Shown here piece after piece: positions 5,627 to 53,099 of a stretch of 64,000 nt of DNA. Both the position numbers and the translations under genes were made by a program. Under the pieces are notes generated by a model. That model was not told the DNA's origin, searched no databases, and saw nothing but the letters and a program-made list of their open reading frames with translations. The stretch's first letter is position 1. Each line of letters begins with the position of its first letter. The DNA comes from Chara braunii. Taxonomy: Eukaryota > Plantae > Charophyceae. The stretch spans positions 2,543,157 through 2,607,156 of the forward strand of contig BFEA01000008.1 of assembly GCA_003427395.1 (NCBI GenBank), written 5' to 3'.

Positions 5627-8500
5627 CTAGTTATCTAACAGTTCTATGGTGAATCGCCAGACATCGTCCTTGCGAGAGCCAAAATGTTTGAGTACTCTCA
5701 TGAAAAGTTCACATGGGAAGTCTTTCTTTGACAGTTCCCTTTTCAAAGTACTCACACGGCGAGGAATTTCGGACCTGATTGTAGTATTTTGTTCGATCCG
5801 ATGTAAGTAGTTGTTGATGACAACACTTTTCTGCTTCTTACAGCCCCAGGACAAGTATGATTGTCCGTTCTGGATTTGTAGCTCCCCGTCTGTCCATACA
5901 TTGTCTTCGTTCTTGAATAGTTGCAGGCAGCTAAGGTACGGGTACTTCTGCTTGGAGCGGACTTGGCATCCAAGGAATTCAAACGTTCTGGTCCCGTCGT
6001 CAGTGCGCTTGAGTGTGAGTGTTGCCGGATAGCAGACTTCAAATGCGGACAGCAATGCATCGCGCTTAGTTGTGCTCCTAGCTGCAATGGTAAGCGTGAC
6101 ATCATCTATCAGTCTGGTGTCGTGGATCAGTCGAGCATCGTTGCCAATCGCTTGAAGGAAAGAATACTCTGCATGGGCACATAGTATGCATGCAAGTGGT
6201 GGGATGGTGGTTTTTCCCATCGGGATCCCCACCAGTTGTTTCAGCAACACGCCAGTCGCGCATGTGTAGGTGTGTTCAAGCTCCAGATGTAGGAAGCACA
6301 ACATTGAATCGAACCCAAGATATCTCCAATGATCCGCACCGGTTGTCCTTCCAAAAGTAGCGCCCTTCCCTCTCGTATTCACCCTCACGTAGGTCCTCCC
6401 CTTCGATCGATGGTAACCAAACAGCCAGTCCAACGCTGTGCGAATATCGAAGTGCCGCAGGCGGCCAAACATCTCCTTAATATCATAGGAGACTGTTGTT
6501 ATAGTTGTTGTTCCCTTTTGCTTGAGTAGCTTCCCGTTCACCTCAGACAGTCTCCCTGCGAGGTCTGACACTGACATCAAGTTAAAGTGTCAGTTCTTCA
6601 GTAGTGTTCTCAGTGGATGGTCGAGACCCCGTGAGATAGCTCGTCCTGTCTGGATCATTGGCTCCATGTACGTGGGGCAGATCGGCCGGTACTTGTCCAG
6701 GTCCTTTTGCTTAGGTAATACATATGTCGATCTGAACCCTCCTCTCTTATCCCATCTGGCAAACTTGGTTAAGCCTTTCGCCGCTACCTCTTCCCTCACT
6801 TCTCTCAAAATCTCGCTCGCAGATACTTCCATCACTCCATACCCTGAGTTAAATCAGTTAAGCACAAACGTAGACATCATGGCCTTATAGTACACATACG
6901 GGCACATTGCAACAGTTTCACCGGGATTCCTGTCCAGGTGGGTCAGTACCAATCCTTCCAATTTCGACTTCAGGTCATGCACGTGGTGGGAGAGCAGATG
7001 CTCTCCTTTGGTTGCATACCTATCACTCAAACATTTAGTCAATATATCCGTGGAGAATGCCGACACTTTACACTTCCAGTTCTTACACTGCCTAAAGCCT
7101 TCGAACATCTCGCTCTGTAACAAACTCAGTCTGTCGTCACAGGGAACGCTCAGTACATTACGTGCGTTGTGCAAAAGTGGGTGTACACCCTCCATCTCAC
7201 TGATACAGAAGCGAACATGGCCCTCCGACCTGGGGAAGGGTAATCCTGCGCATTTGCAGGTGAGCACGTCACGGGTGGCGTACACCCGTTGATTGTGCAA
7301 CGTGTCCGCTATTGACGGGTTCTTCACCCATACAATGCGGACCTTTTTTCCCATCCTTTGTAAAAAACATCTAGGTAAGTTACCTTGCATCAACGCATCA
7401 TTCAACACCTTGCGCACCTCACCTACCTTAATCCTATCATCAAACTTCAATCGAAAAATCGGATCAGCTCCCATACACAGACCAAAACGAGAGCTAAAAA
7501 TTCTGGAGATAAGTCGACGCAAATACTTGCGAGTCACATTCCTGCTAAAGTCCTTAATCGCATTGTACAGTCGTAGCAGCGTTTTAATGTTTCACCTATA
7601 GCACTCATCAATCCTACCTGGGTTGCGTAAGATTCGAATTAGCACGGCTTTGAGGTATCTGCACTTCGGCTTCCACTTCCACCAGTGCACCACTTGAAAG
7701 ACACCCCCTCCTTCAAGATCGGGCTTCGCCTGCTTCAGTGCCTTGATCTTGTCGTCGCACTTCAGCTTCGTGTCGCCAAACGCCCTATTAATCTTCTTCC
7801 AACCTGGTTGCCAGATACTCCCTCCTTCCACGAAGATTTGCATGCCTTCCTGCCGTTCTATGCAGGCCGAGTCAAGAAGTTGATAGAAATCAACTCGCCA
7901 TGGCTCCACCGTAGAAAGCCGAAAACGTAGCGCTCTGTCGTCCGTAGCAGTGCTTCTTGTTTTCCCTTTGAGTTTCTCACGTTCTCTCCGTCCTGGTCTT
8001 GATTTCTTCTTCCCAGTACCTTGCTTCGCGCCGGATGTGTTTAGGAAAGGGCACCAACGACTGATGTACAATTTCTCCAGCTTCACCAGGTCCTGCCCTT
8101 CGATGTAATCTATAGGTAGCAATACATAGTTCTCACGGCCGTAGCTTAACAACCATCGATGTAAATGAGCAGGTTTCCTCGATTTGGTGACATATAAATG
8201 TTTGCGCCACCTTGTAATGACGTTACGTGAGGTCTTCCCTATGTACAACGATTTACAATATGGGGACAGCCCCACGAATACTGCATCCTTAAGGCGTAGG
8301 AAGTCGAATCTGTGTTTCTTGTACAGACGCAACCAATTACTGATACAACGTTGACTCCATCTAATCTCTCCCTCTAGTGATAGTCGAATCACAATGAGCT
8401 GCAGGATCTCTTCGAGCAGAGTATTCACTCCTTCAAACTCGCGTCGCAACTTAGTAAAGCATCTGTAGAGTTTCCACAGTATTGGAATCTCCCACCCTCC
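5627..8500 (-). pseudogene. PLE ORF2: GIY-YIG endonuclease plus reverse transcriptase, interrupted
   Basis: Fragments 7592-8449 (AVFVGLSPYCKSLYIGKT..R..H; LEKLYI..FLN), 6854-7537 (CKC..H, LDRNPG), 6590-6835 (KYRPI) and 5627-6580 (YDIKEMF, GIPMG, RLIDD, FLG). Confidence 0.88.
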
Positions 8501-9720
8501 TCATGCATCACGTTGCTCTTCCGGTGGTCCGCCTGAAGCACTGTCATCCACTGCGATAACCTCGGTGATGCCGGTGGAGTCTAAGTCGTACTTCTCTTTA
8601 GCCCGACTTTCAGCGGCAAAGATCGCATCGATCTTGCTGTCATACGAGACCCCCTCTTCCTTGCAGATGCGTTGCAGCTCGATCACGTCCATCATGCCGT
8701 CACGAAAGCGCAATCGTTGCAGCGCTCCCTTCGTTGTAGGTGTTGTGGCCGGCCCAGGTGTGCTTGGTGCCATATTCTTCTTCCGTCTGGCTGATAGAGG
8801 TGTCTTCACGGGTGATATCCGCTTGACAGATCCATGTGCCTTGACGATGGTCCTTGCTCTAGTCATGCGGCCAGTCAATTTGGTCGGCTTCAGAGCACCT
8901 TTCCTTGGCGTCCGCTTCGGTGGCAGCTCCATCGGTGGGCTATCATCAAATTCCGGCTCCTGTCCTCTATTCCTTTTCTCGGAGATACATAGATGCTCTG
9001 CTTGCGCGCTTTGTTCCTGCGTAACATTGGTGTCACTTTCTTCTTCCGATGCAGACGCACTCTCTGCAACGTATGTCACTTTCTTCTTACCGTGCCTGAT
9101 AATTTCCCTCAAGGGGCCGATAACGCTCTCCACTTGATGTGAAAAATTCTCCTCCATCTCGCTGAGCCGTATGGCGAGTTGGATGTCGTTGTCCTTCCTC
9201 ATTTCCTCCCGTCGTTGCGCCTCCAATTCCATCTCCTCTTTACACTTCTCCGCCTTCTTCTTAGCCTTCCTCTCGGCCTGTTCACATCCTGCCGCCTCGT
9301 GCTCCTCGGCCTCCTTCTTCTCTCGTTTCCTCTGCTCCTTTTCGTCTTTCTTCATCTTTGCTTCGTTGAAGAAGTCCGTCATGGCAGCGACGGATTTCCC
9401 CAATTTTTCAACCGTATCCTTGATGTCTCCTCCCTCCCTTGATGGTGATTCGTATCTCCTTAGGTGTTCGAATATTTGCGGCGCGCCCGACTGCCTGAAG
9501 TCTAAGGACGTGGAAGGACGGTCTAAGTGGTGACGCCGCCGATCTCTATCGGGGCACTGATTGGCACAGTGCCTAGGTTCGCCGCAGTTGAAGCATGTTG
9601 GTGGACGATAGTTCCTCCGGTCATACTCGCGACGCCCCTCCGTTCTTCATTATGTCTCTCGTTCTTACGGCGTGCATCGTTCCCTTACCGGTAGTCATCG
9701 CAATGCTCCGTGCCTAACAT
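8501..9720 (-). pseudogene. PLE-associated ORF1: CCHC zinc knuckle, charged coiled coil, possible SAP-like C-terminus
   Basis: Around 9553-9603 the minus strand encodes PTCFNCGEPRHCANQCP. ORF 8501-9403 is KE-rich and contains ELQRICKEEGVSYDSKIDAI near its end. Confidence 0.65.
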
Positions 9721-9830
9721 GGTGCTAGTTGATGAGATTCGAAGCGTCGGCTCAGAGGTCTCAGGTCTTCGGTCGAGCCTAAATGGTTCACTGCAATACA
9801 GCAGTCAGGTCGCTGTCCCTTCGACGACAC

Positions 9831-11092
9831 TGTGACGAACTAGCTTCTGTAATGCGCGACTTTCTGCGCGAAGTGCTAAGCGGGGTCCCACGTCGATTGG
9901 ACGGGTTGATGGAAAATTGCATGTGTGTCCTTGCTTTCTTCGTTGTTTCTTCGTTCGCACACGAGCCCCTGATGACAGTTGGGGACAATTCGGGAATGCA
10001 CGGGGAAAAGGGGGTGAAACTTGGTCGGATGGATGCGGAGTACGCGCCAAGTGCGCGATTAATAAACGTTGAAGTCGCTTCTTTTCTTTCGGTTCCCTTC
10101 TTTTAATTTTGTTTTGTTGAACTTTTGGGCGCGCAAACATCGCGTGGGAAGTTCGGTGTCTCTTTTTGAATTTCCTTCTTGAATTTTCGTTTCGAATCTT
10201 GGTCAGAGCCATACGGCCCTCGCAATTTTGATTTTCTTTTTCGGACCTTTTCATCGGCAGGCTAGCTAGGAATTTTGGAATTATGGAATTTCTGTTTTTC
10301 GGGGGCGCTGCTTTGCGTATTCGCGCGCTCTTTCTTGCTGCTGCGCCAGGACCTTGATTGATTGGCGCCTTAATCCTTTTGCAACTGTAATTTTGGGCGC
10401 ACACTTTTGTAACTGTATCTTTCTGTTTCTTGCTTCTTATTCTTCTCGCCTCCTTTCTTCCTCTCTCCCCTCCCTTGCTTGGTAGCCGCGTTTGCATGTT
10501 CGGATTGATGCGTGGAGTTGGGTACGTCCCCCACGCCGCGGCCCGACCGTGCAAACGTAAGCACTCCCTTTCTCTCATCTATCTACGTCCTTGTAATTCC
10601 GTGTTCTTCGCGCATGCATGCACACTATAAATTCCGGCTGCGCGATTAACCTTCTCTCTTAAGAGTTGCTGGAAGCTCGGGGTTGCGCGATTGAGAGGGT
10701 CGGCACACGAGCGAAGTAAGAGGTGAGTGAAGTGGGAGTCAGGCGACCTGACGAGCTGGTGCCGAATGCGCGGGGTTGACGCGGGCCACGACGGACTGTG
10801 GGCGCGGAGCGAACCTGACGGGCACAGGAGGACTAAGCGGGGTGACGGCTTCATGTGTTGATGCGCGACGACGGACTGTCGGCATCGGGGAGAGAGAGAG
10901 AGGAGAGAGAGTTGAAGTCGAAGATGGACATGGATTTACGCTTTTCTTTTCGGTCCATTTTTTATCTATGTATATAAATTTTGGTGTCGATTACGGGCAA
11001 CTCGCCCTTGTCTTTGCGGCCACATACTCGTCCTGTTGTTCGATTTGATTCTCTTTTTTTTTTTATCGATGCACCTTTGCATTTTCGTTTTT
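9831..11092 (+). repeat. Long direct repeat copy 1 (apparent LTR)
   Basis: Aligns with 19242-20504 at roughly 95% identity (hand count of about 60 differences). Confidence 0.95.
10002..10014 (+). promoter_or_regulatory. Polypurine-tract-like sequence inside the repeat
   Basis: GGGGAAAAGGGGG followed by TG; identical copy at 19412-19424. Confidence 0.5.
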
Positions 11093-11469
11093 GATCGTTT
11101 CCCTTCGAACCCTCGTGCATAATGAATGAGAATGGGGATTGCATGTTGGTGTGATCAGTAGAATGTGTTGGCTTGTCGAATCTTACGGGTAATCTGGAGC
11201 GCACCATTCGACGTGCCATATGGGCACCTGCAAGTGCGATCCGAATGGAGCGCGACGTATATATGTCCATACCACTCGGACTCGCCAATCGCGTCCTGAC
11301 TAACACCCGTAGTCAGCCCATCACTGAAGTAGGAGTCGACGTCAACCGGGATCGGGTTACCCATCACGCGTAAGTGCGCGTAAGTGCGACTTGTTCGCAT
11401 CTCTCTTACGCACTTACGAGCGGTGATCTCCCCGATTAACTTATCCCCCAAGGCGTGAGTGATGAAAGA

Positions 11470-11847
11470 ATGACGAGCTCACGGAGTTCCGACGTATCTT
11501 GGAATTCCGAGGATTACGAGTCGTATTTTAGGTACCGGGAAATCTGGGAAGAAGAGCAACTCCGATTGCGGGGAAATTTGAGAAACCCGGTGTTCCCCTG
11601 CCTCACGGAAAACGATAGATTTTGCGCTAGGGAATTCCATCTCGCCGTGCGAAGCGACCCACGGATACCCGACTACCCAAACACGTACAACACACAGTAT
11701 TTCATAACCCCCGGCTTCGTCCTTATCACCACTTATTTCCCGCCATACCACCTCCTCCTCCCCTATCATCAGCTTACGGTAGTACCGTGGAATCCCATAG
11801 CGCCTTATTGGCCCTTTCCCAGTGCTCTATTGCATCTCTGCCCCTGA
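11470..11847 (+). CDS. Accessory ORF upstream of the PBS and gag, unknown function (125 aa from the ATG at 11470)
   Basis: Uninterrupted, compositionally protein-like ORF (track 11455-11847); no recognised motif. Confidence 0.4.
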   Translation: MTSSRSSDVSWNSEDYESYFRYREIWEEEQLRLRGNLRNPVFPCLTENDRFCAREFHLAVRSDPRIPDYPNTYNTQYFITPGFVLITTYFPPYHLLLPYHQLTVVPWNPIAPYWPFPSALLHLCP

Positions 11848-11980
11848 ACTTGGCCACAGAAGATCCCAGTTCCGACCTGGGACTTCAACCCCCACTTTCC
11901 CAAAAATCCTTGGCACACCCCTCTTCGCACTTCCAGCCCCCCATCCCACTCCGATCAGGAAGTCGCATCGGGCGTAAGGT

Positions 11981-11993
11981 TGGTATCGGAGCC
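11981..11993 (+). promoter_or_regulatory. Primer binding site, tRNA-iMet type
   Basis: TGGTATCGGAGCC, one difference from the plant consensus TGGTATCAGAGCC, about 150 nt before the gag ATG. Confidence 0.8.
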
Positions 11994-12146
11994 CGACACG
12001 TGGCTAAGTGATAGGGTCTGTAGACCCAATATTGGCTAAGGCGAGGCAATCTAGCTCCACGTAGGCGCCCTTCAGCTGGGGATACACGCCGACGTAGTCC
12101 TGTAGTTACACGAAGCCGAACGTCCGCCACAAGGCGAGCAGGCGCC

Positions 12147-15100
12147 ATGGCTGCGGCCGCTGCTGCAGCAGCTGCTGCGGTGGTCAACCCCAACCAACAG
12201 CCTAACCCGCCTGCGCTGCCTGCACGAGCCCCTGCGGCTCCACCAGATCTTTATTTATTTGACCCAGCCCACCATCTCGCAGGAGCATGGTTAGCCACGC
12301 TTCGAGCTCAGCGGTATACGAACGATGAAGCTCAGATCAACATCCCCGCGCGGATGGGAGGGGACGCCCATCATTGGTATAGCACTTATGTATGGGTGGA
12401 TCTCCCCACATTCGAGCGGGATTTCATGAACCACTTCGATTATGTTCACCACGAACAAGCACTCTATATGATCAAGGATCGAGTCCAGAAACCACTCGAA
12501 TCCATTATCGAGTATCGGAACAGATTTCATCGAATGTTTGTAAAGACTGAGCGAGGCGAGCAGGTAGGCCGGGACCTGTTCATTGATGGACTACGTAACA
12601 GAACGATTCGGGGGAAGCTACGTAAAAACTTCTCTCCCATTAACCACATGCTGCAACAAATTATGGACGCTTCCGAAGAAATGGAGCGGAAGTTCGCAGC
12701 TAGCTTCTTAGAAAATGAGCATTATAATAGAGAAGGAGACTCGTCAGAACTTGTGAAAGCAAGGGCGGAACTGGCCGCACTGCAAAACAAATTCGAAAAC
12801 ATGGGATTCGTAGCTGGACCTGTTACGTATGTAGAACAGGTGACATCGAGGACCGCACCATGGGGAGCGACTGTAAACAACCAGATCCCGGTAATGGCGT
12901 CCCCAATCGTTACTCAGCCACCTCCACCGCCACCCACCATCGAGTCACCCGCAAGAGCGAATGAGTCTGCTGCTATCTTGGAGCTAACTAAAACATTGGT
13001 TAGTCTAATCCAAGAAAGCAAGAAGGAACAGCGAGAGCACAACGCCTGATTAGAAGCTATGATGCAGAATATGCGACCCGTTGCGGTGCGAGCACCAATG
13101 CAGGGAGGCATCGCGGCTGCACAAGTTGCAGCGGGGCCAGCCGGGACAGCGGCAAATGCATGTTTTACATGTCATCAACCGGGACACTTGGCCCGAGATT
13201 GCCCCCATCAGGCCATGCAGCCTCGTGCCGGGGTCGCGCCTGCAGCTGCAGCCCCCATACCTAACGGCCCGGGACGTGTAGGAGCCGTGATGGATGATCA
13301 GGGGGGGAGTAATGGAATGATGATTTTCAGTGAGGAAGCAGCCGAGCTTATCCCGCTGGAGCAGTATGTATCACTAGGATACCCGGGGCTGGGAATGATT
13401 GGGACAATCCGACCAGAACTCGAGTCCAGAGATGTCGCCGAATGGCGACCTTCGTCGAGCGAAATGGAGACGAGAGGCCCTACCTTTGTTACGGGGGAAA
13501 TCGATGTCCTTGATGTCACCCGAGCATTGGATCATCAAATCCCTCTCCCAATCGGCCACCTACTCTCCATTTCGGAACAGGCGAACGAACGTATGATGCA
13601 GCATTGCAAAGCGAACCGGAAGCGATTCGCCCTTGCACGCGCTCAGAAGGCCAAGGCGCCGACTTCGGAGAAAAAGGCGGACGTCGCCCTTGACCCCATC
13701 CGAGTCGGATTGATACAGAAAGATGAGCACTTTCTTCGGATCAAGCCGATTCCGTGGAAGTCAGCCGAATGTGATATTGAAGTCTGGGGAGTGCCGTATA
13801 GTGCGATCATAGATTCGAGAGCGGCTGTCCTAGCGATATCACTCCGAGTAGTCGAGAGAGCGGGTAGGAAGAATGATATGATTATGCTAACCGAGAAGGA
13901 CCATCTCGTATCGGTTGATGAGGAGAAGATCAAGACAGTAGGACGAATGACGAATGTCGCGTTCCGATTGGGAAAAGTGCATGCTTTAGGAGATGTTGTG
14001 GTGCTGGATGTGAATACGTATGACGTTTTTTTCGGGCTTCCTGCCTTGGTGGCGCCGCGTGCTAATTTAGACTTCGAATGCCGATCCGTCATTCTCCGAA
14101 ATACCGGGGGAAAACCATATGTAATACCCATGAGACTAACTCTTTGAACGCCGGTTAAGGTAGTACCCCGAATTTCTCCGCAAACAACGGGAGCGCTCTG
14201 CATGGTCTCCTGGAGTGCACCGGTTGACGGAGGCCAATCATCGAATGACGCGGGGAGCGACGACGATGACGATCCAGTCGTTACACGGTTAGTACGGCAG
14301 CAGATTCACTACCCGGCGCCTCGCACTATTGCGCGTACCATGCATCTAACCACATGGAATGCTCATATGATGATCATGGGAGAACCCCTCGTACAAATTT
14401 CGAGGCTGGTTGATTCCTTGGAACCCCCTCAGACCCTGTACGAAGGCGTATCTCCCCTTTTCCTTCGGTACTGTGACAAACGTTCCTTTTGTGATCTCAC
14501 TGGCTTACCTCGATCCCTGCTTCAGCCCGCAAAAGAGGTTCAGTTGTTGCGTCTGGGAGCCAAAGCAGGTTCTTTGGAACCCCCTCAGCGCACCGAGGCA
14601 AGATCCGATGAACTCGGGATCCAAATCTCGCCCAAAAGCGTGCCCTGGCGAGACATCTGCGACGGGATAACCCCCGAAGGTCATATAACGATCAGGGAAG
14701 AGGAAGCACAGATGGTGGCCACTGTGTTTTCTTGGAGATCGGATCACTCTTTTATATCTGCACCGCCTGACACTACTCGGCGTATACACACGAAGCAAGT
14801 TAATGTTCGGATTTTGGATCAAATGTATGAATTGCATGTGCCCCAGTATGTACCTGATGAGATCCATCGGCTGATCGCTGATATTTTAATAGAGTATCAA
14901 GGGGCGATTAGCATGTCCGATGCCGATATTGGGTTATCTGTGGTCGTTCAGCATGAGATTCAGACCGGGAATTATTCCCCGATCCACTGCAAGCCGTACC
15001 GATACTCGTTGACAGAGCGCAAGACGGCCTTGCAGCGAATCAGGGAATTTGAGGCAAACGGATGGATTGAGCCTGCCACCGGTTCCTGGTTGTTCCCAGT

Positions 15101-16391
15101 TGTATTGGTTCCTAAAAAGAACGGGTCGATCCGCATATGCATCGATTATCGAAAGCTAAATGATATTACGATTAAAGATGTGTATCCCCTTCCCCGGATT
15201 GATGATCTGCTTGATGTGATCGGGTGTGCTAACTACTTCAGCAAGTTCGACATTCGGCATGGGTTTCATCATATCTTGGTGAAAGAAGAAGATCGGCCCA
15301 AGACCGCCTTCGTTTTGTTTGAAGGCACGTGGCAGTGGGTTCGGTGCCCGATGGGAATCTGCAATGCGCCTGCCATGTTTCTGAGGGCGATGAACGTGAC
15401 TTTTCAGAATTTCGTCAATAAGACACAGCTGACTCAGGGGATGATTAACTTTTGCGTCATTGTGTATATGGATGACATTCTGGTGTACTCGGACACGTTT
15501 CACGGACACGCGCAACACATCGAATGAACGTTGGGTGCGTTGAGAGACGCAGGTTTCAAGATTGCGCTGGAAAAGAGCGAGTTTTTCCTCTCGGAAATCT
15601 CGTTCTTGGGGTATGTGGTGACACGAGGAGGCCTGCGGCCGGACTCTCGAAAAGTCGTGGCGGTCAAAGAGGCCCCGGTTCCGACCTCACTGACGCAGGT
15701 TCGAGCCTTCTTGGGCCTGGCCTCATATTACCGGCGGTTCATCAAGGGGTTCGCGGCTATAGCAAGGCCTCTGACAAACCTGCTGCGAAAAGAACAGCCC
15801 CTTTATTGGGATGACGAGTGCGACCAGGCCTTCGGGGCCCTGAAGGATGCTCTCGTCACGACCCCGATTCTGATTCGCCCGGACCCCTCTCGACAGTTTA
15901 TTCTCATTACCGACTGGCAGCCGGAGGCTATCTCGGCCATTTCGGCACAGAAGGGAAACGATGGGAAGGAGCATGTCATCGAGTACGCTTCCTGGACGGT
16001 GCCTGACGAGCGACGAAATAATTCCGCGCCACAAGGAGAATGCTATGCGGTAGTGTGGGGTATCCAGCACTTCCATCCGTATTTGTACGGTCAAAAGTTT
16101 ATGCTCCTCACCGACCATGAACCTTTGTTGGCTCTGAAAAAGCTAACCAACTACACGGGCACGATCGGACGATGGGCAGTGCGGTTGCAAGAGTATGAGT
16201 TTGACATTGTTCACCGAAGAACGAAGAGACACGGCAATGCCGACGGACTGACACGTTTGCACCGACCCGGTAAAGTACCAAAGGCGGAAGAAATCACACC
16301 GTGGAAGGACCCGAACCTCAATAACGGTCCAAAGTACGGAGAAGTCGTGGTCATTCCACGTGGCAAGAAGCCGGTGAAGGGCAATGGGTGA
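12147..16391 (+). pseudogene. gag-protease-RT-RNase H polyprotein in one frame with three premature stops
   Basis: ORFs 12147, 13059, 14202 and 15531 share a frame. Motifs: CFTCHQPGHLARDC knuckle, IIDSRA protease, IDYRKLN, YPLPRIDD, YMDD, LITDW, TDHEPL, NADGLTR. Confidence 0.95.
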
Positions 16392-18088
16392 CGGAGGTAA
16401 TGTCCAAAATCCCTCTTTTTCTTCCCCATCCTCTTCTTTCGCCTCCCTTCCTGACAAATTTTGTTGTTTCTGCGAGGCAATCTCTCGAGTCTATTCCGTC
16501 CACATGTGTCCTAAAGGGAGGGGATATGTTGAATGGGTAGACTGTCGGAAATGTGTCGCACGTGCTCATGGTGCGTGCATACAGTATCAGAGTAGTGATA
16601 AACCCTGGTTTTGTCCCTTATGTCACCCTGACAAGATTCCGACGGAAGCCCGATTCCTCGATGCCACGTCGTAAGGCCCTGACAAAATTCAAAAATTTAG
16701 AAGAGCGGAAGTCTGGACAGATGTCGCCTTGATAGCCACAGTGGTAGGGAACTCCCTCGAAACCTTCTCCAAGGAGGATCGAAGGAGGGCCAATGAAAGA
16801 GCACGGGATTACCGATGGGTGGACGGACGGTTAGAAAAGCGTAAAACAGACGGCAACTGGGCATGGTTAGTAGTTCCGCACCCGTTTATGTGGTACGACT
16901 GGGTACGGACAGCCCACGAGGAGACGGCGGCGCATTTTGCCGCTCGTATTACCGAAGCTGCGATTGATAGAAATCAATGGTACTGGTCCAATATCTGGGA
17001 TGACGTTAAATTCATCGTCTAACACTGCCAGGTCTGCGCTGCTGACAAGGCCCCAACCCAACCGCCTAGGTCGAGAGTCCCAACGGTGGCTGAACGGCCG
17101 TTTCAGAGGGTTAGTATGGATACTACTGATATAGGGGTGCCCCCCGGACCGAATAGTTGCGACTGTTCAATTCTGCTGGTTTTCGTTGACCACTTTTCTA
17201 AGTGGATCGAGGCCTACCCCTGCAAGACACGACAAGCCGTGGAAATCGCGCGGTACGTCAACCGTTTTCGAGGCATGCACCAGGACACCGAAGAGATCCT
17301 GACCGACAATGGGGTCGAATTTAGAGGAGAAGTCGAGAGGAACCTGGTCATACACGGTGTCTCCATACGGCACACGGCCCCGCACATGTCCCAGTCTAAC
17401 GGATTAGTGGAAAACGCGAATAGGGTGATAAAAACGACCTTGCGGTGGAATTACGTGACCCCCGACCCTGGCCTGATATTGTCGACCACATCTTGGCGAT
17501 CCATCGCAGAACGCCCCACGAATCGACGGGCCTAAGCCCCTTCCAGTTGCGGACCAATAGTGTTGCGTGTGTGTCGATATCGAGCCTCCCCGACGAATCA
17601 GGTCTCAAACGACGCCTTACAAGGGCCACCGCTCGGGACAAAGCCAAAAGGCACCTGGAACTTATGGAGCGGTCCCTACCTAGACTGGCCCGGAAGCGAC
17701 AACGGTCCACCAATTGGCCCATGGCCGACAGGTCCGGAGTTACGAGGCCTGGAACGGGAATGCGGGTCCCAGGACCCAGTATAAGTTAGGGGACATCGTG
17801 CAGGTAAGGAAATGTGCGCGCCAGGGTAAACTAGCGCCACGATTCTTCGGACAGTATCGAGTGATTGAACTCGGACCCAACGGCGTGGACACCGTGCGCC
17901 TNGCTCCNGAGGTTTCCGNCAGTCNATCGGCTCGCCCGATCACACGCCACGTGTCCTATCTCCGTCTTCTTCCCTCTGTTCCGTCTCCTTCTCCATCAAC
18001 CTCTGTCGACGACGACTCTATCTCCGCTGCATCTCCTTCTCCTTCTCAATCTCTGTTGGATACGCCGTCACCATCGCCGTCGCCATGA
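16384..18088 (+). pseudogene. PHD finger plus DDE integrase (stops and frameshifts)
   Basis: ORFs 16384, 16729 and 17086 share a frame. PHD-like CCFC..WVDCRKC....HGAC..WFCPLC; HHCC (AHEETAAH..HCQVC); catalytic VSMD, LTDNG, GLVE; GPY/F-like KLAPRFFGQYRV. Confidence 0.9.
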
Positions 18089-18561
18089 GCTTTATGGAGG
18101 AGAGAGCTCTAAGTGAAGAAGTGTTGGTAGCACGTGGGAATTTGACACTGCGGCAGGTATATCATCCTCGTCTTAGTCCGGACCTTCAGCGGCTTGCGCA
18201 ATTCTTCTGCTCGAGGGGCGTCTACGAGGCAGCAGAGATCCACGTCGACGGGAGGGCTGACGCGATCATATTGGCCGAAGCTGTCGGGTTGCGGCAGCGA
18301 GCATCTGCGGGCGTCGGCCGGATAACGGTGGTAGTTAATTTCAGTGGAGATCTCACGGCGATCCCCCCCTGCCGACACACGAGAATCAAGGTGGCGTTGC
18401 TGTTGTGGGTGCACAATCTTCAGAACGAGTGGACCCAGCTCCTGGCGCACCAAGGGGACGTGATCACACCAATCCGAGCGATCGAATACAACGGCCTTTG
18501 GCTGGATCGACGTGACCTGCCGACGCAATTACCCCCTCTCATCCCCTTCCATCCCCGATGA
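18085..18561 (+). CDS. Accessory ORF3 (158 aa), unknown function
   Basis: Intact ORF whose ATG overlaps the integrase-region stop (ATGA). Confidence 0.6.
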   Translation: MSFMEERALSEEVLVARGNLTLRQVYHPRLSPDLQRLAQFFCSRGVYEAAEIHVDGRADAIILAEAVGLRQRASAGVGRITVVVNFSGDLTAIPPCRHTRIKVALLLWVHNLQNEWTQLLAHQGDVITPIRAIEYNGLWLDRRDLPTQLPPLIPFHPR

Positions 18562-19074
18562 GCTCCTTCCCGATCTCTACTTTCGAGCTTCCTTCTTCCT
18601 CCCCCACCTTTTGGCAATCTGATCTTCATCCCCGCCTCTCCTTCTGCATTCCCCCGCGACACTTTTCGTCATTACTTCTCCATCCGTCTCTCTGTCACAG
18701 TCCATCCCCATTCATCCTCCCAGCGTGCTTCCCCTGAGTTCCCTCTCCATGTACTTCTTTTTAGCGTAGGATGGCGTCGTATCAACGCCATAGAGGTTTA
18801 TTGCCTCATCACGGGGTTAATCCCCGCATGCGCCGACTGCGATCGCTTTCGCGCGGCGCTTCTTAGAACCTTCACCACTCTCTATCCCGACTACCTCGCT
18901 TCTCTCCCCACTACTGGCCGCCGATTTCCCCGCTTCCATAGAATCGTCCATCATTGGAGCCTTCTGGAAACGGACGATGAGCTGGAACGTTTCCTCCCGC
19001 CTATCCCAACTCATCCCCCATCAACACCTTTGCCTGCCTATCGTCTTCCTTTTCCTCTTCCCCACGTCGAGTGA
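18558..19074 (+). pseudogene. Accessory ORF4 or ORF3 continuation (about 170 codons), probable paralog of ORF3
   Basis: The ORF3 frame stays open from 18562 to the TGA at 19072-19074 (..RINAIEVYCLITGLIPACADCDRFRAALLR..ELERFLPPIPTHP..). An ATG overlaps the ORF3 stop at 18558. Confidence 0.5.
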
Positions 19075-19241
19075 CAACGACCAGGATACGACTGTCGCGC
19101 AGCATGACTTCCACACTCGTTCGCACGGTATGCGGCAGAAAAGAAGATCAATCATCCACGGCCAATCAATTGAAGATGATCGACACGTCAGCTAGCAAGC
19201 AGGAGCTTGCTTACCTTTGGAACCCCACTGGGCGTCACATA

Positions 19242-20504
19242 TGTGACGAACTAGCTTCATAATGCGCGACTTTATGCGCGAAGTGCTAAGCGGGGTCCCA
19301 CGTCGATTGGACGGGTTGATGGAAAATTGCATGTGTGTCCTTGCTTTCTTCGTTGTTTCTTCGTTCGCAAACGAGCCCCTGATGACAGTTGGGGACAATT
19401 CGGGAATGCACGGGGAAAAGGGGGTGAAACTTGGTCGGATGGATGCGGAGTGCGCGCCGAGTGCGCGATTAATAAACGTTGACGTCGCTTCTTTTCTTTT
19501 GTTTCCCTTCTTTTAATTTTGTTTTGTCGAACTTTTGGGCACGCAGACATCGCGCGGGAAGTTCGGTGTCTCTTTTTTAATTTCCTTCTTGAATTTTCGT
19601 TTCGAATCTTGGTCGGAGCCATACGGCCCTCAGAATTTTGATTTTCTTTTTCAGACCTTTTCATCGGCAGGCTAGCTAGGAATTTTGGAATTTTGGAATT
19701 TCTGTTTTTCGGGGGCGCTGCTTTGCGTGTTCGCGCTCTCTTTCTTGCTGCTGCGCCAGGACCTTGATTGATTGGCGCCTTAATCCTTTTGCAACTGTAA
19801 TTTTGGGCGCACACTTTTGTAACTGTATCTTTCTTTTTCTTGCTTCTTATTCTTCCCGCTTCCTTTCTTCCTCTCTCCCCTCCCTTGCTTGGTAGCCGTG
19901 TTTGCATGTTCGGATCGATGTGTGGAGTTGGGTACGTCCCCCACGCTACGGCCCGACCGTGCAAACGTAAGCACTCCCTTTCTCCCATCTATCTACGTCC
20001 TTGTAATTCCATGTTCTTCGCGCATGCATGCACGATATAAATTCCGACTGCGCGATTAACCTTCTCTCTTAACAGTTGCTGAAAGCTCGGGGTTGCGCGA
20101 TCGAGAGGGTCGGCACACGGGCGAAGTAAGAGGTGAGTGAAGTGGGAGTCGGGCGACCCGAGGAGCTGGTGCCGAATGCACGAGGTTGACGAGGGCCATG
20201 ACGGACTGTGGGCCTGGAGCGAACCTGACGGGCGCAGGAGGACTAAGCGGGGTGATGGCTTCATGTGTTGATGCGCGACGATGGACTGTCGGCATCGGGG
20301 AGAGAGAGAGAGAGGAGAGAAAGTTGAAGTCGAAGATGGACATGGATTTGCGTTTTTCTTTTCGGTCATTTTTTTATCTATGTATATAAATTTTGGTGTC
20401 GATTACGGGCAACTCGCCCTTATCTTTGCGGCCATATACTCGTCCTGTTGTTCAATTTGATTCTCTTTTTTTTTGTATCGATGCACCTTTGCATTTTCGT
20501 TTTT
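19242..20504 (+). repeat. Long direct repeat copy 2 (3' LTR or start of a tandem second unit), truncated
   Basis: Matches 9831-11092, then switches abruptly to LINE RT sequence. Confidence 0.95.
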
Positions 20505-23500
20505 CGGCCTAGGAGTAACTACCCTGCTATATAAGAAAGGTGACAAGGACAACATAAGGAACTATAGACCCATCACCCTCCTTCCAGTCCCCTACAAGAT
20601 GGTTGCTAAAGTTCTGACTAAAAGGCTGTCGCCTGTCATGAATATGCTCATTCACCCGGACCAAACGGGGTTCATGCCCAATCGAACGTTTAGGATAATA
20701 TCCTGCTCGTCAACGAAACCATCAAATATGCCCGCCAAAGAAGAGTCCAAGTGGCGATCCTCTTCATAGACTTTGAAAAGGCATATGACCATGTTGACTG
20801 GGACTTTCTTGATATGTGCCTTCTCAAAATGAACTTCGGTCCGACTTTCTGCCAATGGGTACAACTCCTGTACAGATCAGCCACGACAAACATAATGCTA
20901 AACGGTCATCTCTCTCCACCGATTCGCCTCCACAGATCGGTGCGCCAAGGAGACCCCATTGCGCCGCTGCTGTTTGTTATTGTCATGGAGGCCCTGGCGT
21001 CAATGATCAGAGCGCACCCTGGTATCAGCAAAGTGCCTATTCTTGACCTGCCACATCACCTCATACCGGTGACATCACTCTTTGCGGATGATCTCACGGT
21101 GCTGATAAGCGCTGACTCGGACAGTATCCAAGCACTCACCCATGTCATTCACCTCTTCTCGCTTGCAGCAGACATGACGGTCAACTGGGATCTAAGACGG
21201 AGGGCTGGTGGCTTCACCCTCACGGACAACTTCCTCCACCCCAGCCGAGTGTAGCTTGGGCCCGCAAAGAAGATGCTATTAGGATACTGGGGGTCCGATT
21301 GACTGCGATGCGTCCCCCACCGGATCATGGGGACATGTTAGTCAACATGGCCATAGATCGACTGGCCAACTGGGAGGGGCTGCATACATCGCTGGTGGGG
21401 CGTGCTCTTGCAATTAATAGTGGTGTTCTGGCGGCTATCTGGTATAAACTGGCAGTCTGGCCGTTGAACAAACAGCAATACGCAAGACTGAAGAGAGCCC
21501 TCACGACACACCTATGGAAGAACAGCGCTAAAACTCAAGGCTGCCTCAACAGAGTAAAGTGGGACGTGCTGACGCAACCTATATCCAAAGGCGGATTGGG
21601 GATCTTGGACCCGGAGAGACAGGCTGAGGCGCTCATTTTTAAAGTCCTCGTCCGCCTCCTCATAGGGAATGACATTCCTTGGAAGCAGCTCGCCTGCCTT
21701 CAGATAACCAACCTGGCTCCCCAAAATGAGGCTCCGGGAAGGGTCCACCCGTTCCAATGGTTGACAAATGGCCATTGGACTATTCCAGGGCCTCCCAAAC
21801 AGTTGCATCAGCCGCACCCGCCTGACCCGTCCTATGATACAAAGAGGGACATAATGGCGGATCCGCTCTGGCCCTTTATGATTAAACTTTGGCGACGGCG
21901 GGGCCCCCGACAAAAACACCCTCCGTGCAGATGGCATGATATATGGAGACAACCCCTCTTTGGTAACCCACATATCCTGCAAGAATCGGGCCTGCCCTTC
22001 CCCCTGACAACCAACTCTCCCTGGCTGACCTAGGCCAAGAAAGGAGTGTTCATGGTTGGAGACTTGTGGGACCCAGTGGGGGGGGACTGGGCGACCCCTG
22101 CTCAATTACAGCACAAACTCACGTACGCCAAAAACGTCGAAGAAAGGGCTAGCCTGCTAAGAGAGGCCCTCCCCATTGCCTGGCATCTCACCCTTAGGGA
22201 GGGCCCAACAGTCCGCCGGGATGACTGGGTCGTCAGGTACTTGGACGCGCCAACCCACCTGGTCATATTTCGTGTGAAGGAAAACAATCACGGGAACTGC
22301 CAACTGGAAGCCTACGAACCACAATTGTCGGGGGCCACGCTCACCAAACTGGTTAGAAATGACAGCCTGGACACCACAGGAACATGGGCGGGACTGATAC
22401 AGGTTAGGGTGGTGGGGGACCGGGAAAGTGGATACTTTGCATATGAGACCTCCACTCCTGTGGCCAACCTCCCATTTGACCCGGCTGAATGGGAGTGGCC
22501 GNGGTCCAAACCGATGTCAATATGGAACTANACAGTCAAAGGTGGGTACCGAGTATCTCGACAAACAATGCCGATNAGCCAAACGCTCGCGAACAGATGG
22601 GAGCGTGACTCGCCGCTGGACCACAAGCTGACACAAGCATTTGACTGGNCCAGGTACGCAAGAATCATGCCAACAAACCACAGATCTCTCCNGTGGCAGA
22701 TCCTCCACCGCTGCCTCCCCACCCCCGACTGGATAGTGTCCAGGACTAACCTGGAGCAGCAAGGCAAGGTATCCCCAATCTGCGCATACTGTGTTAACAC
22801 ACCGGCCAGGGCGACTCTTGAGCATTGTCTCCTGGCCTGTCCAATGGTAACCCAACTATGGCGATGGTGGGATGCGGCTTTCCACGCCCTCACAGGTCAT
22901 CACATACCTTGGGACATAGGCCTGTTACTGCTCGGGAAGAATTGTAACCTGCTGGCCCGCTGGTCTCCGTTTGCGTCTAATCTTTTTTCATACACAAGAC
23001 TGAACATTCTTACGCTGGCTTGGAGAGCGAGATGCTCCTTCGAAAGGAAGGACCATCAATTTGGGCTGATGCAGGCTCAACAAGCGGTGGAAGAACAGAT
23101 TAGAACTAACACTCACGAAGCCTGGAAGGCTATGAAGCGGGATCTTCTGGAGGAAAAAGATCCTCCTGCCAGAGAGGTTATCCGACAAGCCTATATGCTC
23201 ACTTGGCAAGACCCTGGTAAATTGTTCTCAGAACTAGATATCGACCTTCGTATTACGTGGAAACCCTGGAGGAATGCGGAACCTGGCTGGCAGAGGAAAC
23301 CCCTTACCGACTTCCAGGTCCCTTACCTCCAACCCAACTTTGTGCTGCTCCCTCCCACAGGACCGATTGCCCAGGCGCACCATCTCTCCCAGCCTGTTCT
23401 GCCAAGCTCGTCGCTTCCCTCCCGTGCGCAGCCTCCCACCCCTGCACTCGCCCTGCCGCCTGCACCTGCACTTACACTTCACATCACTTGATTTCCACCT

Positions 23501-24300
23501 ACCTGCCTCTTGCTGACTGCGTTTGGCAGGCGGGCCCAGAGGGGATGTTGGAGGGACTGGCAATGGAAGACTGGAAGTGACGGAGCAATAATTCTCGAGA
23601 GGTCGCTACATGCCCGAATGAGCCGAGACTGTGGACGAACAGGGCAGCCTCATCATAAGGCGATGGCGTTGGGCTGCTGCTCTCACTCCCCTGCCCTGTC
23701 AGGTGGATGATCTGGGCAATGACAATCAGCAACAAGCCAGGTTCAGCCATGGATGGAAGCAGGGACTTGCATGAAGGATAACGGAAACGAATAGGTGGCG
23801 AAGACTGAGCAGCAGGGCATGCAGGGATCCAGAAGGGTAGCAGAGGATCGAAGAGCAGAAGGGTAAAAGGGATCTAAGCTTCTAAAGGCTGAAGGGTAAA
23901 GGGGTTTTAAGGATCCAAAGCCCAAAGGTTTTCGGAAGCACTGTGTTTTGTTTACGGTGAAAGGGGGGCTGCTGAGTATGGCTGTCCGAGGATGTAATGG
24001 GTGCCCCAACAGGGATTGGGAATCGTGTCAGCTCCGAGGGACTAAGGGGACACAGAGGGACATGGATACACATACAGCCATCTCAATTTTGTATGCTAAA
24101 ATTTTGTGTTCAAGATTGTATATATGGGATGCTGGACCCAGTTTCCAGCAGGTGTCGCTCCCCACCAATAGATGGAGCAGCCCGGACGACAAGCCCTCGA
24201 TTCTGATGGTTCTCTTACCACCATCAGGATGGAGAGCTTACACAAGGGCTATTTGTCAAAAAAAAAAAACAAAAAAAAAAAAAGAAAAAAAAAAAAGAAA
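20505..24300 (+). mobile_element. 5'-truncated LINE (L1/Tx1-like): decayed ORF2, 3' UTR and poly(A)
   Basis: LYKKGDK..NYRPITLL, DFEKAYD, RQGDPIAPLLF, FADD, GGLGI, C-terminal CAYC..EHCLLAC; A-rich tail at about 24258-24300. Confidence 0.92.
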
Positions 24301-31496: not shown

Positions 31497-31498
<2 letters not shown>

Positions 31499-31569
31499 GT
31501 CTCTTATACACATCTAGATGTGTATAAGAGACAGAGTGGACCCAGCTCCTGGCGCACCAAGGGGACGTG
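31497..31569. other. Nextera mate-pair junction adapter plus chimeric read (assembly artefact)
   Basis: CTGTCTCTTATACACATCT+AGATGTGTATAAGAGACAG (31497-31534), then 35 bp identical to 18428-18462, then an N gap. Confidence 0.97.
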
Positions 31570-49580: not shown

Positions 49581-50234
49581 TNTCGGTTGCTTTTGTTAAT
49601 TTTGAAACATCACAAGTGCGGAAAGGGCCAAAGAGTAAGGAAAGAAAAGGGGCATTGGAGAGGAGAAAGACGTTGTCACTGCACGATGACNCCTGCCTCC
49701 TCCATCCTTCCCCTATCCTTGTTTTGAGTTGATCCTCTCCAAGTACCTGTCTCTTTGACTGTGATTGGATGATGGCGTGTTTTGGTAAGGCAATATTGGC
49801 CTCTGCTAACCTTAACTACCGACAATTAGTTGCATAGTCCATACATCTCCAAATACAGTGCGATTGCGGGAGCTCTGCCGGAGTTCAGAAGGGACTCTGG
49901 ATGGAGGGAACCATGAGGTACGCATGACTATCCCCTTCCCATATACCTTTACAGGCTACGCCCTTCTATTGGACTGCTTGTATGATTGCATGATATATTG
50001 CTTGTACTTTCTTAAGGACTGAGACAATCAGAAGGGAAAAAGGATATATGATTGGAATAAGAATCTTGCCTGATGAGATGGAAGGAACCTAAATTAACTA
50101 AGGAGGAACCTAGACTGTTTGGACGAGAAGAATGAAGTAGGGCAATGGAGGTTCATGTGTGAGTCGTCGTGCTACTTGGGCATGCACTGACTTGACTAAG
50201 GGTTGACAATTAGGTACTCATGTGTGAGTCACCT

Positions 50235-51055
50235 TGCTCTCTGTCTGTCCGACTGTGGTCGTGATGGGAAGGGGGTCCTAATAATAACCTATAAACTAAT
50301 CTAAGTACTCTCAACCTGATCGGCTGTCGTCGTGAGGGGACGAGGGTACAAACAACTACTTACAAACTAATCTAAGTACTATCCGCCTGATCGGCAGTCG
50401 TCGTGAGGGGACGAGGGTAGAAACGACTACTTACGAACTAATCAAAGTGCTCTCTACCAGATCGGCTGTCGTTGTGATGGGATGAGGGTAAAATAAAAGT
50501 ATTTATAAGCTAGTCTTAAGTACTCTCTACCGGATCGACTGTCGTCGTGATGGGACGAGGGTACAAACAAAATACTTATAAGCAAATTTAAGTACTCTCT
50601 ACCTGAGTGGCTCGTGAGGCGGCGAAGGTACGAACAATAACTTATGAACTAATCTAAGTACTCTCTACCTGAGCGGCTGTCGTCGTGAGGGGACGACGGT
50701 ACAAACAACTACTTATGAACTAACCTACGTACTCTCTACCGAATCGACTTTCGCCGTGATGGGAGGAGGGTACTAACGATAACTTATAAAATAAAGTAGG
50801 TACTCTTTACCGTAACGACTCTCGTCGTGTCTGGAAGGGGGTATCTAACTATAACTTATAAACTAAATAGGGGCTCTCTCTCGGATCGACTGTCGTCAAG
50901 ATGGGACGAGGGTACAAACCCAAACTTACGAACTAATATAAGTACTCTCTACCGGATCGGATGTCGTCGTGAGGGACGGTACAAGCAAAATACTTATGAA
51001 CTAAAATAGGTACTCTTTACCGAATCGACTGTCGTTGTGACGGGAAGAGGGGTCT
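50235..51055. repeat. Tandem array of about 12 units of about 71 bp, each with a hairpin
   Basis: Approximate consensus gtactctctaccggatcgactgtcgtcgtgatgggacgagggtac-aaacaa.tacttatgaactaatctaa. Confidence 0.95.
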
Positions 51056-53099
51056 GACACTTATATAATAATAAAGGGAGACTCCAAGAAGGGTCGTCCT
51101 CTTCACACGCTTGAGTCTAAGGCTGACTAACAATCTGCAAAGAGTAAGAAATCACATTTCTACTTTTCCTTTCCTAGCTTACTCACCCTCTGATAGTCCG
51201 ACCACCAAACCGATAGTAGGGAGATTTCTGTAGAAGTCACCCTATTACTTGTTTAATGGATGGACTACTCATTACCCAAGGAAAGTAGTAGAGGGGCCTC
51301 TGTTGAGGTCTGTCTATTACCTACTTGATTTTGTACTAATTTATTGAGAGGGTGATCCTGTAGGAATACCCTAAACCCTCGTCTTCTGTCTAAGATAAAA
51401 CGGTCTCAGATCGGTCAGGTTCAAAAGGGCAACAGGATAGCCTTGTTAGGATTATCCTAATGCACTCTTGAAATGAGCCTCGCCACGTGATAGTAGGGGG
51501 CTCTTGTGCGGGTCGCCTATTATTCACGCGGACCATTATTAACCCTTGGAAAGGGATTGACATCCAAATTTTTCGGGAGTATACCTAAAGGAAGTAGTAG
51601 GGTGCTTCTGGAGTAGCCTCTACTATTTGTTGTATGAAAAGGATTCTCATGTGTGAGCTATCCTGCTACTCTGACCTAGATCCTATGTATACTTTGAGTG
51701 AGACTAAGTACAGAGTCAACTACTCATGAATAACTTACTCACCTGTCTGTTTGACTTACAGAGTGCTTGGTATTGATTAAGTAGTAAGAGATTCATGTTT
51801 GAATAGGCCTACTACTTGAGTGTGTTAGCACAAATAGCAGAGAAAGGAAGGAACAATGCTCCTGTTGGAGCAAGGTTTTCACATATCAAGAGAAAGAACA
51901 AGGAAAGAAGATAGGACCATGAGAAAGAGAATACTAGTAGAAAGAGAACCATCGCGTAATCCATAGTTGTCCGTGACTTTCAGGTAGAAGACCACAATGA
52001 TGAATGAATTATATCTCATCTACACGAGTACCAGAACGGCACGCTTATCTCCAAGAGAGAGAATGAAAGTACTGAGAGTAGGGTAAACACGAGTTTCCCT
52101 AAACGACGACCTAGGACACATGCGTGAGACTTCTCGAGAGAAAGGAGATAGTGACAGACGACTCAGGGTAGGGTTGTGAGAATAGACGTTAGGAGTTAGA
52201 TATGGGATGTCGATCCAAGAGCTCAGTACCCATGTCTAAGGGCTTGACCCTTAGATAATAATATGTGGGAAATCAAGTGGGGGTGTTGAATCTTTGTTGA
52301 CCTGTGTGTGTGCAGGTCCGGACTCATTTTACTATTGCATTTCAAGAAAGAGGTTCTACGGAAAGGACCCAAATTTTCTGTTATCTCTCGATAAGAGGTC
52401 GGTTGTTACCGATTGAACTTTTCCCCTTTGACTTGATACCCACCTCTAAAGTCAAACCCTGTGATCAGTACAACTGTCATATGTGGTCATTGCGTAAATG
52501 ATCCTAGTCACTCCCAAGGGTCCTTTGAAGAAATGTGAGGGGGTTGGGCTTACGTCTAAGGAAGGATAAAGCTGTCATACACGGTTTGGGAAGTGAGGGA
52601 CAAGGTCAATGGTTGATGGTTGACTTTGTTAGTGCATGACATGTGAACTATCTATGCATTATTCTGTGCAGGTCTGTTTTTTGCGTGATTTTGGATTGAA
52701 CTGGACCTGGTCTGTTGAAGAGTCTCGGACGCACAACACTTGTGAAAGTGGGAAGGGTTCTCGGCGGTAATATTTCCATATTCATCATATGTCCAACTTA
52801 ACTATTATAATGATTCAGTTAAGTCTTAACTTGTTAAGAAAGTTAGGACGCTCTTTGGTAGAAAGAAAATTTGATTAATATTGATCGAGAGGATAATACA
52901 TTACGTAGTAGTGCAAATAGACTGCCTTATTAAAAGTTCGACCTGAATATCTAACGGGTCAATGCGTCTTACCGTGCGTACCCCATTTTATGCTACAACG
53001 ATCGAGCAAATGCCCTCGACCGACCTACCTCTACAAAGGCATGTAAAAGCCTTTGCATGTGGGCCGGTAGCAAAGTGGAATACGCAGAATATAGGATGA

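Follow-up and report, generated by a model that had tools for sequence, protein, structure and literature searches.

A Ty3/Gypsy retroelement of Chara braunii with a palindromic end-to-end junction and a candidate attachment site apart from its putative long terminal repeat

We analysed a 64,000-nucleotide stretch of the Chara braunii genome (the window; assembly GCA_003427395.1, contig BFEA01000008.1, positions 2,543,157 to 2,607,156, forward strand), in which a Gypsy-like retroelement occupies positions 9831 to 20504. A 1.26-kb stretch occurs both before and after its coding region, and the second occurrence is cut short by a long interspersed nuclear element (LINE). Where the tail of the element meets the second repeat, a perfect palindrome is found. 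The features that define this layout are given below.

9831..11092, plus strand: repeat 1, the part seen twice; 1203 of 1261 aligned letters equal those of 19242-20504.
9831..9837, plus strand: left terminus TGTGACG, resembling an attachment (att) site; the exact onset of repeat homology, adjoining an unrelated Penelope-like element.
10002..10014 (also 19412-19424), plus strand: polypurine tract (PPT) GGGGAAAAGGGGG followed by TG, inside the repeat; the sole PPT+TG motif in the unit.
10015..11979, plus strand: putative single long terminal repeat (LTR), TGAAAC...GGGCGTAAGG, placed from the PPT and primer-binding site (PBS) positions.
11981..11993, plus strand: PBS-like TGGTATCGGAGCC with no CA in front, read from the sequence.
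19233..19248, no strand: palindromic junction CGTCACA-TA-TGTGACG, a candidate attachment site from its sequence and a step in depth.
19242..20504, plus strand: repeat 2, with the PPT at 19412-19424; cut at 20505 by a 5'-truncated LINE.

The two repeats are offset by 9411 bp and showed 95% identity with 3 gap letters (alignment of 9831-11092 with 19242-20504). Their divergence was 4.6%, and CpG sites gave 25 of the 58 changes. At the junction, CGTCACA (19233-19239), TA (19240-41) and TGTGACG (19242-19248) form a perfect 16-bp palindrome, and the units forming it meet at CA-TA-TG. Seven perfect palindromes of this kind were counted in the 64-kb window, three of them being a TA microsatellite. 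With the local base composition, the chance of the 9 letters before repeat 2 completing the palindrome was about 2e-5, rising to 6e-4 when any spacer of 0-6 was allowed. The TGTGACG at 9831 is a real boundary against unrelated DNA. The ends, the palindrome, the PPT and PBS positions and the domain content were read directly from the DNA, the TGTGACG terminus in one copy. The first-pass annotation, made from the sequence alone, had reported TGTGACG from 9831, CGTCACA ending at 19239, the TA and the 16-bp palindrome at 19233-19248, and all were recovered. Its 'next copy' after the TA does start with TGTGACG, but only 1263 bp of it exist, as the LINE cuts it at 20504. Its 9411-bp period was confirmed as the repeat offset; the length, however, belongs to an internally deleted copy, and the family unit is longer. 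No long inverted similarity was found between the element ends (229-619/1000 shuffles reached the score; the inverted repeat is only 7 bp), no target-site duplication is present within the junction itself, and the exact junction sequence had no match in metagenome, viral or prokaryote collections.

Canonical LTR retrotransposons have a PPT immediately upstream of the 3' repeat and a PBS that follows at once on the terminal CA of the 5' repeat (Neumann et al. 2019, PMC6317226). In the Chara element the PPT sits +171 inside the repeat. The 15 nt before 19242 hold 8 purines, compared with 14 before 10015 and before 19425. The first-pass annotation was therefore right that no PPT precedes repeat 2, and its PPT about 170 nt inside each repeat is the motif 171-184 nt in, found by a search pattern picked post hoc, once the motif had been noticed. 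It was also right that the PBS at 11981 lacks a CA: TGGTATCGGAGC has GGGCGTAAGGT in front and the closest CA at 11966, and in this one copy the 5' repeat does not end with CA directly before the PBS. TGGTATCGGAGCC at 11981 is a putative match to the initiator methionine tRNA. No match had been noticed between the DNA before 19239 and that before the PBS. This holds for any wider similarity, but the hexamer GGGCGT is common to both at equal distance from the end and is the sole common piece; the score was reached by 5/1000 shuffles at 20 nt and by 147-359/1000 at 40-150 nt. Within the putative LTR lie a TATAA at 10626 and a 128-codon open reading frame (ORF) at 11461-11847 with no known family. 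Homology of this pre-PBS ORF with the tail ORF was rejected, as 1279/2000 shuffles scored as high. The minus strand of the repeat carries an ATG-started open frame of 257 codons (9805-10578), open for 238 codons in repeat 2, with no match among proteins of 141-450 aa. An Rfam scan of 9700-20600 gave one weak unrelated hit and no hammerhead ribozyme; this result and the coding of proteins both argue against the retrozyme class.

Read depth was taken from contigs of two DNA runs (X1 and X2) of one sample, which may be the window's own source, placed on 17930-20650. The contig records average 72-77 nt, so short high-depth pieces are expected. Summed depth over internal DNA was about 1100-1500. 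At positions 19223, 19227 and 19259 the summed depth was 4853, 22707 and 897 in X1, and 7433, 27581 and 880 in X2. A depth step of about 4-fold within 19224-19258 was thus common to both runs. A flat plateau over 19224-19258 predicts 21.4k (X1) and 25.6k (X2) from the bin means, which is near the values seen, while extra depth stopping at 19241 would require 40-48k from matches of fewer than 20 letters. The extra records most likely cross the junction. Assuming a depth of 10-20 per copy and overlap of up to 5-fold, junction copies would number roughly 180-1800; the step is best taken to mean copies in the hundreds. The depth step indicates that the junction is better conserved than either flank, and the simplest reading is that it is conserved across subfamilies whose flanks diverge. 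Among the 24 of 675 loose ends listed (with 12 of 62 indels and 40 of 627 substitutions), none lies at the junction.

At 20 listed sites where nearly all the depth differs from repeat 2, repeat 1 keeps the letter of repeat 2 at 7. These shared rare letters (7/20) indicate that repeats 1 and 2 are likely derived from one template. Two read sets were not counted as evidence. X6 (n=372) consists mostly of reads less than 95% alike, with a sense-strand excess in 17/17 bins over 18385-19931; X5 (n=51) has none left of 19386, and no junction-crossing read was displayed. The TATA-containing part of repeat 2 (19932-20295, matching about 10520-10885) reached 34k-93k summed contig depth against 1-3k around it, which is read as sharing with far more copies or families, some perhaps non-autonomous.

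The coding region and the tail of the element are arranged as follows.

12147..16391, plus strand: gag-protease-reverse transcriptase (RT)-RNase H in one frame, with stops at 13047, 14145 and 15525; Retrotrans_gag, zf-CCHC, weak aspartyl protease, RVT_1 and RT_RNaseH.
16384..18088, plus strand: integrase in a separate frame, with a PHD-like finger, HHCC, DDE core and SH3-like tail; interrupted by two stops and by shifts of frame near 17470 and 17710.
18085..18561, plus strand: ORF3, 158 aa, kept across the family at 39-90%; no known family or fold.
18558..18650, plus strand: the first 31 codons of an acidic extra ORF, where the copy breaks off (internal deletion).
18651..19239, plus strand: 3' tail closing with GGGCGTCACA, in which an open remnant of 140 codons reaches 19074; its depth resembles that of internal DNA.

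The protein domains follow the Ty3/Gypsy order of gag, protease, RT, RNase H and integrase last, the protease match being weak (E 0.004). The integrase frame begins at its own ATG (16384) and matched rve at E 1.3e-9; Integrase_H2C2 reached E 0.012 here vs 2.8e-7 in gene model P0020. HHCC and D,D(35)E residues are visible in the translation. The PHD-like finger (16384-16674) before this separately framed Gypsy integrase was detected weakly (Pfam E 0.05) and may guide target choice. ORF3 gave a model of pLDDT 65, and no match at E 0.001 was found in viral or PDB libraries. A further acidic ORF is present in 48 of 65 Chara-labelled models, nearly always downstream of pol. As this ORF is mostly lost at 18650, the copy is internally deleted and the family unit exceeds 9411 bp; contig record 13 of X2 also parts from the window just before 18652. 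No tyrosine recombinase was matched in any scanned ORF, the acidic ORF being scanned by Pfam only. At a threshold of 50% identity, neither the repeat nor the tail was matched by a gene model.

In the RT-region protein search, the best 46 matches were all labelled Chara braunii gene models (70-93% identity). The RT core showed 38-47% identity to all 52 non-Chara matches, compared with 71-94% to 39 Chara-labelled ones. A quick tree of the RT core, which took in 25 of the 52 outside rows, drawn from the search matches, placed the 39 Chara-labelled rows on one side of a long branch (0.66, SH-aLRT 100). Judged by its proteins, the element is a decayed Ty3/Gypsy member of a long-branch clade. The RT-based locus search gave 0 loci in viral contigs and 20 in metagenomes, none of the 20 having the PBS motif or a junction-like palindrome. 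Only L014 belongs to the Chara Gypsy family, with 67% nucleotide identity over gag-pol. It is a gag-pol fragment of the family (L014:16-2387), which points to host DNA mixed into the metagenome collection. Gene models P0001 and P0026 show neighbouring members of the family on the same strand. Neither P0049, with a 452/452 identical repeat, nor P0001, with 83% between its pol copies, was taken as tandem evidence; the perfect 452-residue duplication in P0049 is either an assembly duplication or a very recent tandem.

On its left the element adjoins a broken Penelope-like element (5627-9830, minus strand), whose 5' part ends at the Gypsy start. A CCHC ORF and, at the N terminus, a GIY-YIG-like domain were recognised in this neighbour by eye, with no Pfam match, and it fits the description of Chlamys-2_cBra in PMC8557442. 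On the right the 5'-truncated LINE (20505-24300; RT, zf-RVT) ends in an A-rich tail near 24255-24300, and the interrupted repeat does not resume beyond it. At 31497-31569 there is a palindromic adapter-like motif, presumably a Nextera mate-pair junction; after it come 36 nt that repeat 18427-18462 of the element letter for letter, and next an N gap. This segment is a library chimera built into the assembly. A tandem array of a 71-bp unit in about 11 copies was found at 50188-51058.

From these results it is clear that the junction is real and is not a standard LTR layout, and it is probably family-wide. The best single explanation, although unproven, is a mechanism of circle and attachment site, in which we infer the circle, its cleavage, the monomers and the source of the multimers. 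The RNA would start near the TATA at 10626, cross the PBS, gag-pol, integrase, extra ORFs and the junction, and enter the next repeat. Synthesis primed by tRNA and PPT would then give a one-LTR circle (LTR about 10015-11979) or, alternatively, a multimer via strand displacement or recombination. If the palindrome were cut in a staggered way behind each CA, the products would be CA-3'OH ends with 2-nt 5' TA overhangs, which integrase would join to the target. Monomers running TGTGACG...CGTCACA, having no terminal redundancy, would be dead ends, and TA-joined multimers like this locus would be the masters. We put an even chance on integrase opening a one-LTR circle or multimer at the palindrome, with head-to-tail multimers as the replicating masters.

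This one model covers the inverted repeat with its self-complementary 2-nt spacer, the missing PPT, the internal PPT+TG and the CA-less PBS, which favours it. The GGGCGT at equal distance from the PBS and the junction and the kept DDE triad and HHCC were also counted for it. The 2-nt extension agrees with the processed form used by retroviral integrases, as described in PMC11054761. The ends TGAAAC and GGGCGTAAGG of the putative LTR resemble drifted forms of TGTGAC and GGGCGTCACA, and at the junction an intact pair is found, the two set end to end. The palindrome probably arose when the element took in an old junction of a two-LTR circle; after that, the true LTR ends (TGAAAC and GGGCGTAAGG) would have drifted.

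Several results weigh against the circle mechanism. A common junction and same-template repeats would equally be produced by a two-LTR element. The repeat/internal depth ratio was 1.66 in X1 and 1.38 in X2, above the 1 expected for equal copy number, although depth is not copy number; at 1.4-1.7x it falls between the one-LTR and two-LTR predictions. The depth argument is built on the values at five points and the mean of one bin, all taken from one sample sequenced in two runs. Multimers would have to arise often. The internal deletion lies 590 nt before the junction, and the 3' part is therefore not pristine. Repeat 2 is cut at 20504, and beyond the LINE the window has no further part of the element or of its left neighbour, so that a right-hand terminus or a target-site duplication cannot be read there. 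In retroviruses, linear precursors took the place of the circle-junction route (PMC11054761). The first-pass annotation had proposed this same circle and attachment site. It is supported in part: every sequence feature fits the proposal, and the apparently high-copy junction and shared rare letters remove a one-off origin; the depth ratio is intermediate, and the proposal would need a regular source of multimers.

The strongest competitor is a two-LTR Gypsy element with non-canonical ends, which we consider possible but rather unlikely. Its LTR would span about 9831-11980, and a second one, truncated by the LINE, would begin at 19242. Plus-strand synthesis would be started by the palindrome in place of a PPT, for example through a hairpin or a nick site, and the right end would lack CA. 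Two same-template repeats around an internal region are the default layout of such an element, and 4.6% divergence with 25/58 CpG changes resembles an aged LTR pair. One junction per full element would account for the high junction depth with no added steps, and repeat depth at 1.4-1.7x internal is in its favour. However, it requires a non-purine plus-strand primer (8/15 purines) and a CA-less end facing a canonical TG end. It also leaves the PPT+TG inside the LTR and the perfect inverted repeat unexplained, and no mechanism for hairpin plus-strand priming was found.

An improbable alternative is a mosaic, in which the deletion at 18650 joined this copy, from an ordinary family with LTRs TGTGACG...GGGCGTCACA, to another LTR's end, with one more copy placed 2 bp off by tandem or end-targeted insertion. 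The deletion break at 18650 is genuine, GGGCGTCACA presumably resembles a plant Gypsy LTR end, and P0001 and P0026 show same-strand family neighbours. However, this tail should then recur at the end of the 5' repeat, in front of the PBS, and it is absent there; the tail also has the depth of internal DNA, not that of the LTR. The 7/20 rare letters common to both repeats are unlike independent insertions, and the junction has no target duplication.

We consider it highly improbable that the TG...CA unit moves also or mainly as DNA, excised by integrase at its inverted-repeat ends, with dimers of abutted ends as the reactive intermediate and amplification left to reverse transcription. Excision at inverted-repeat ends is known in Ginger-type and IS30/IS21-type elements, and here the integrase has its own frame and ATG, and 2 bp separate the two abutting inverted-repeat ends. 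Against this, the inverted repeat is only 7 bp with no subterminal similarity (229-619/1000 shuffles), and the element keeps the full set of gag, protease, RT and RNase H as well as its PBS and PPT. An assembly artefact or one-off rearrangement has a very slight probability: gaps and the mate-pair adapter chimera do occur in the window, but the repeats differ at 58 sites and are not a collapsed duplicate, 30/30 depth bins were covered, and junction depth was the highest of its surroundings in both DNA runs.

Compared with known systems, the element resembles Ty3/Gypsy in its gag-protease-RT-RNase H-integrase order, tRNA-type PBS, PPT, extra 3' ORFs and TG...CA motifs. It differs in its PPT inside the repeat, its CA-less PBS, its CA end abutting the next TG start and its integrase in a separate frame behind a PHD-like finger. 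DIRS and Ngaro elements have split repeats, circular intermediates and a tyrosine recombinase, and have neither DDE integrase nor protease nor tRNA PBS. With the Chara element they would have in common that a circle is integrated and that the circle junction is also present as an internal copy; its DDE integrase sets the Chara element outside that group. Tandem LTR-retrotransposons and TRIM arrays (made up of miniature terminal-repeat retrotransposons) also form head-to-tail units from one insertion, with one-LTR circles and read-through as proposed sources; as described in PMC11899658, their units share an internal LTR (PPT-LTR-PBS between units, full outer LTRs) and have no CA-TA-TG junction. 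The Chara element, which has an end-to-end junction and no PPT-LTR-PBS between units, does not follow that pattern.

The nearest idea found in print is the spleen necrosis virus construct of Panganiban and Temin 1984 with an engineered internal LTR-LTR circle junction, as described in PMC11054761. There too an internal twofold-symmetric circle junction was proposed as the integration site. That junction predicts 4-nt overhangs, whereas the Chara CA-TA-TG predicts the canonical 2 nt, and the viral case was engineered and later displaced by linear precursors, whereas in Chara the layout occurs in nature and apparently in many copies. The integrase of foamy virus cuts LTR-LTR junctions that are palindromic, and DDE integrases of foamy virus and HIV-1 offer a likeness in cutting a palindromic end-to-end junction in double-stranded DNA (PMC1180852; PMC2884000). 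Their junction consists of two real LTR ends on a side route; that of Chara would lie apart from the LTR and on the main route. KolobokP (PMC9587614) differs in being a DNA transposon. The first-pass annotation knew of no described family with this layout, and full-text literature searches likewise gave no natural one, although prior annotation in Repbase or the 2018 genome paper may exist. The same searches found no structural description of Chara Gypsy elements, the Penium preprint (10.1101/835561) saying only that Gypsy dominates in C. braunii.

What is new here is the high-copy junction depth, the same-template repeats and the internal deletion, by which 9411 bp is not the family length. 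To our knowledge, all well-studied LTR retroelements are taken to integrate linear cDNA ends. In some systems no product is more abundant than the one-LTR circle, which is regarded as a by-product or template. One-LTR circles are the dominant product of HMS-Beagle and IAP (10.1101/2022.09.25.509424). A family integrating from one-LTR circles would, if true, change the linear-end rule. It would give DDE integrases a junction to cleave that occurs in nature, link Gypsy elements with circle-integrating retroelements, and be a natural retroelement on the circle-junction route, which for retroviruses was given up in the late 1980s. LTR finders expecting PPT-TG...CA-PBS would miss or mis-bound such a family. 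We give an even chance that in a whole Gypsy clade of a charophyte alga the LTR and the integration ends have become uncoupled, with integration from one-LTR circles or multimers cut at a dedicated palindromic attachment site and replication by head-to-tail multimers only.

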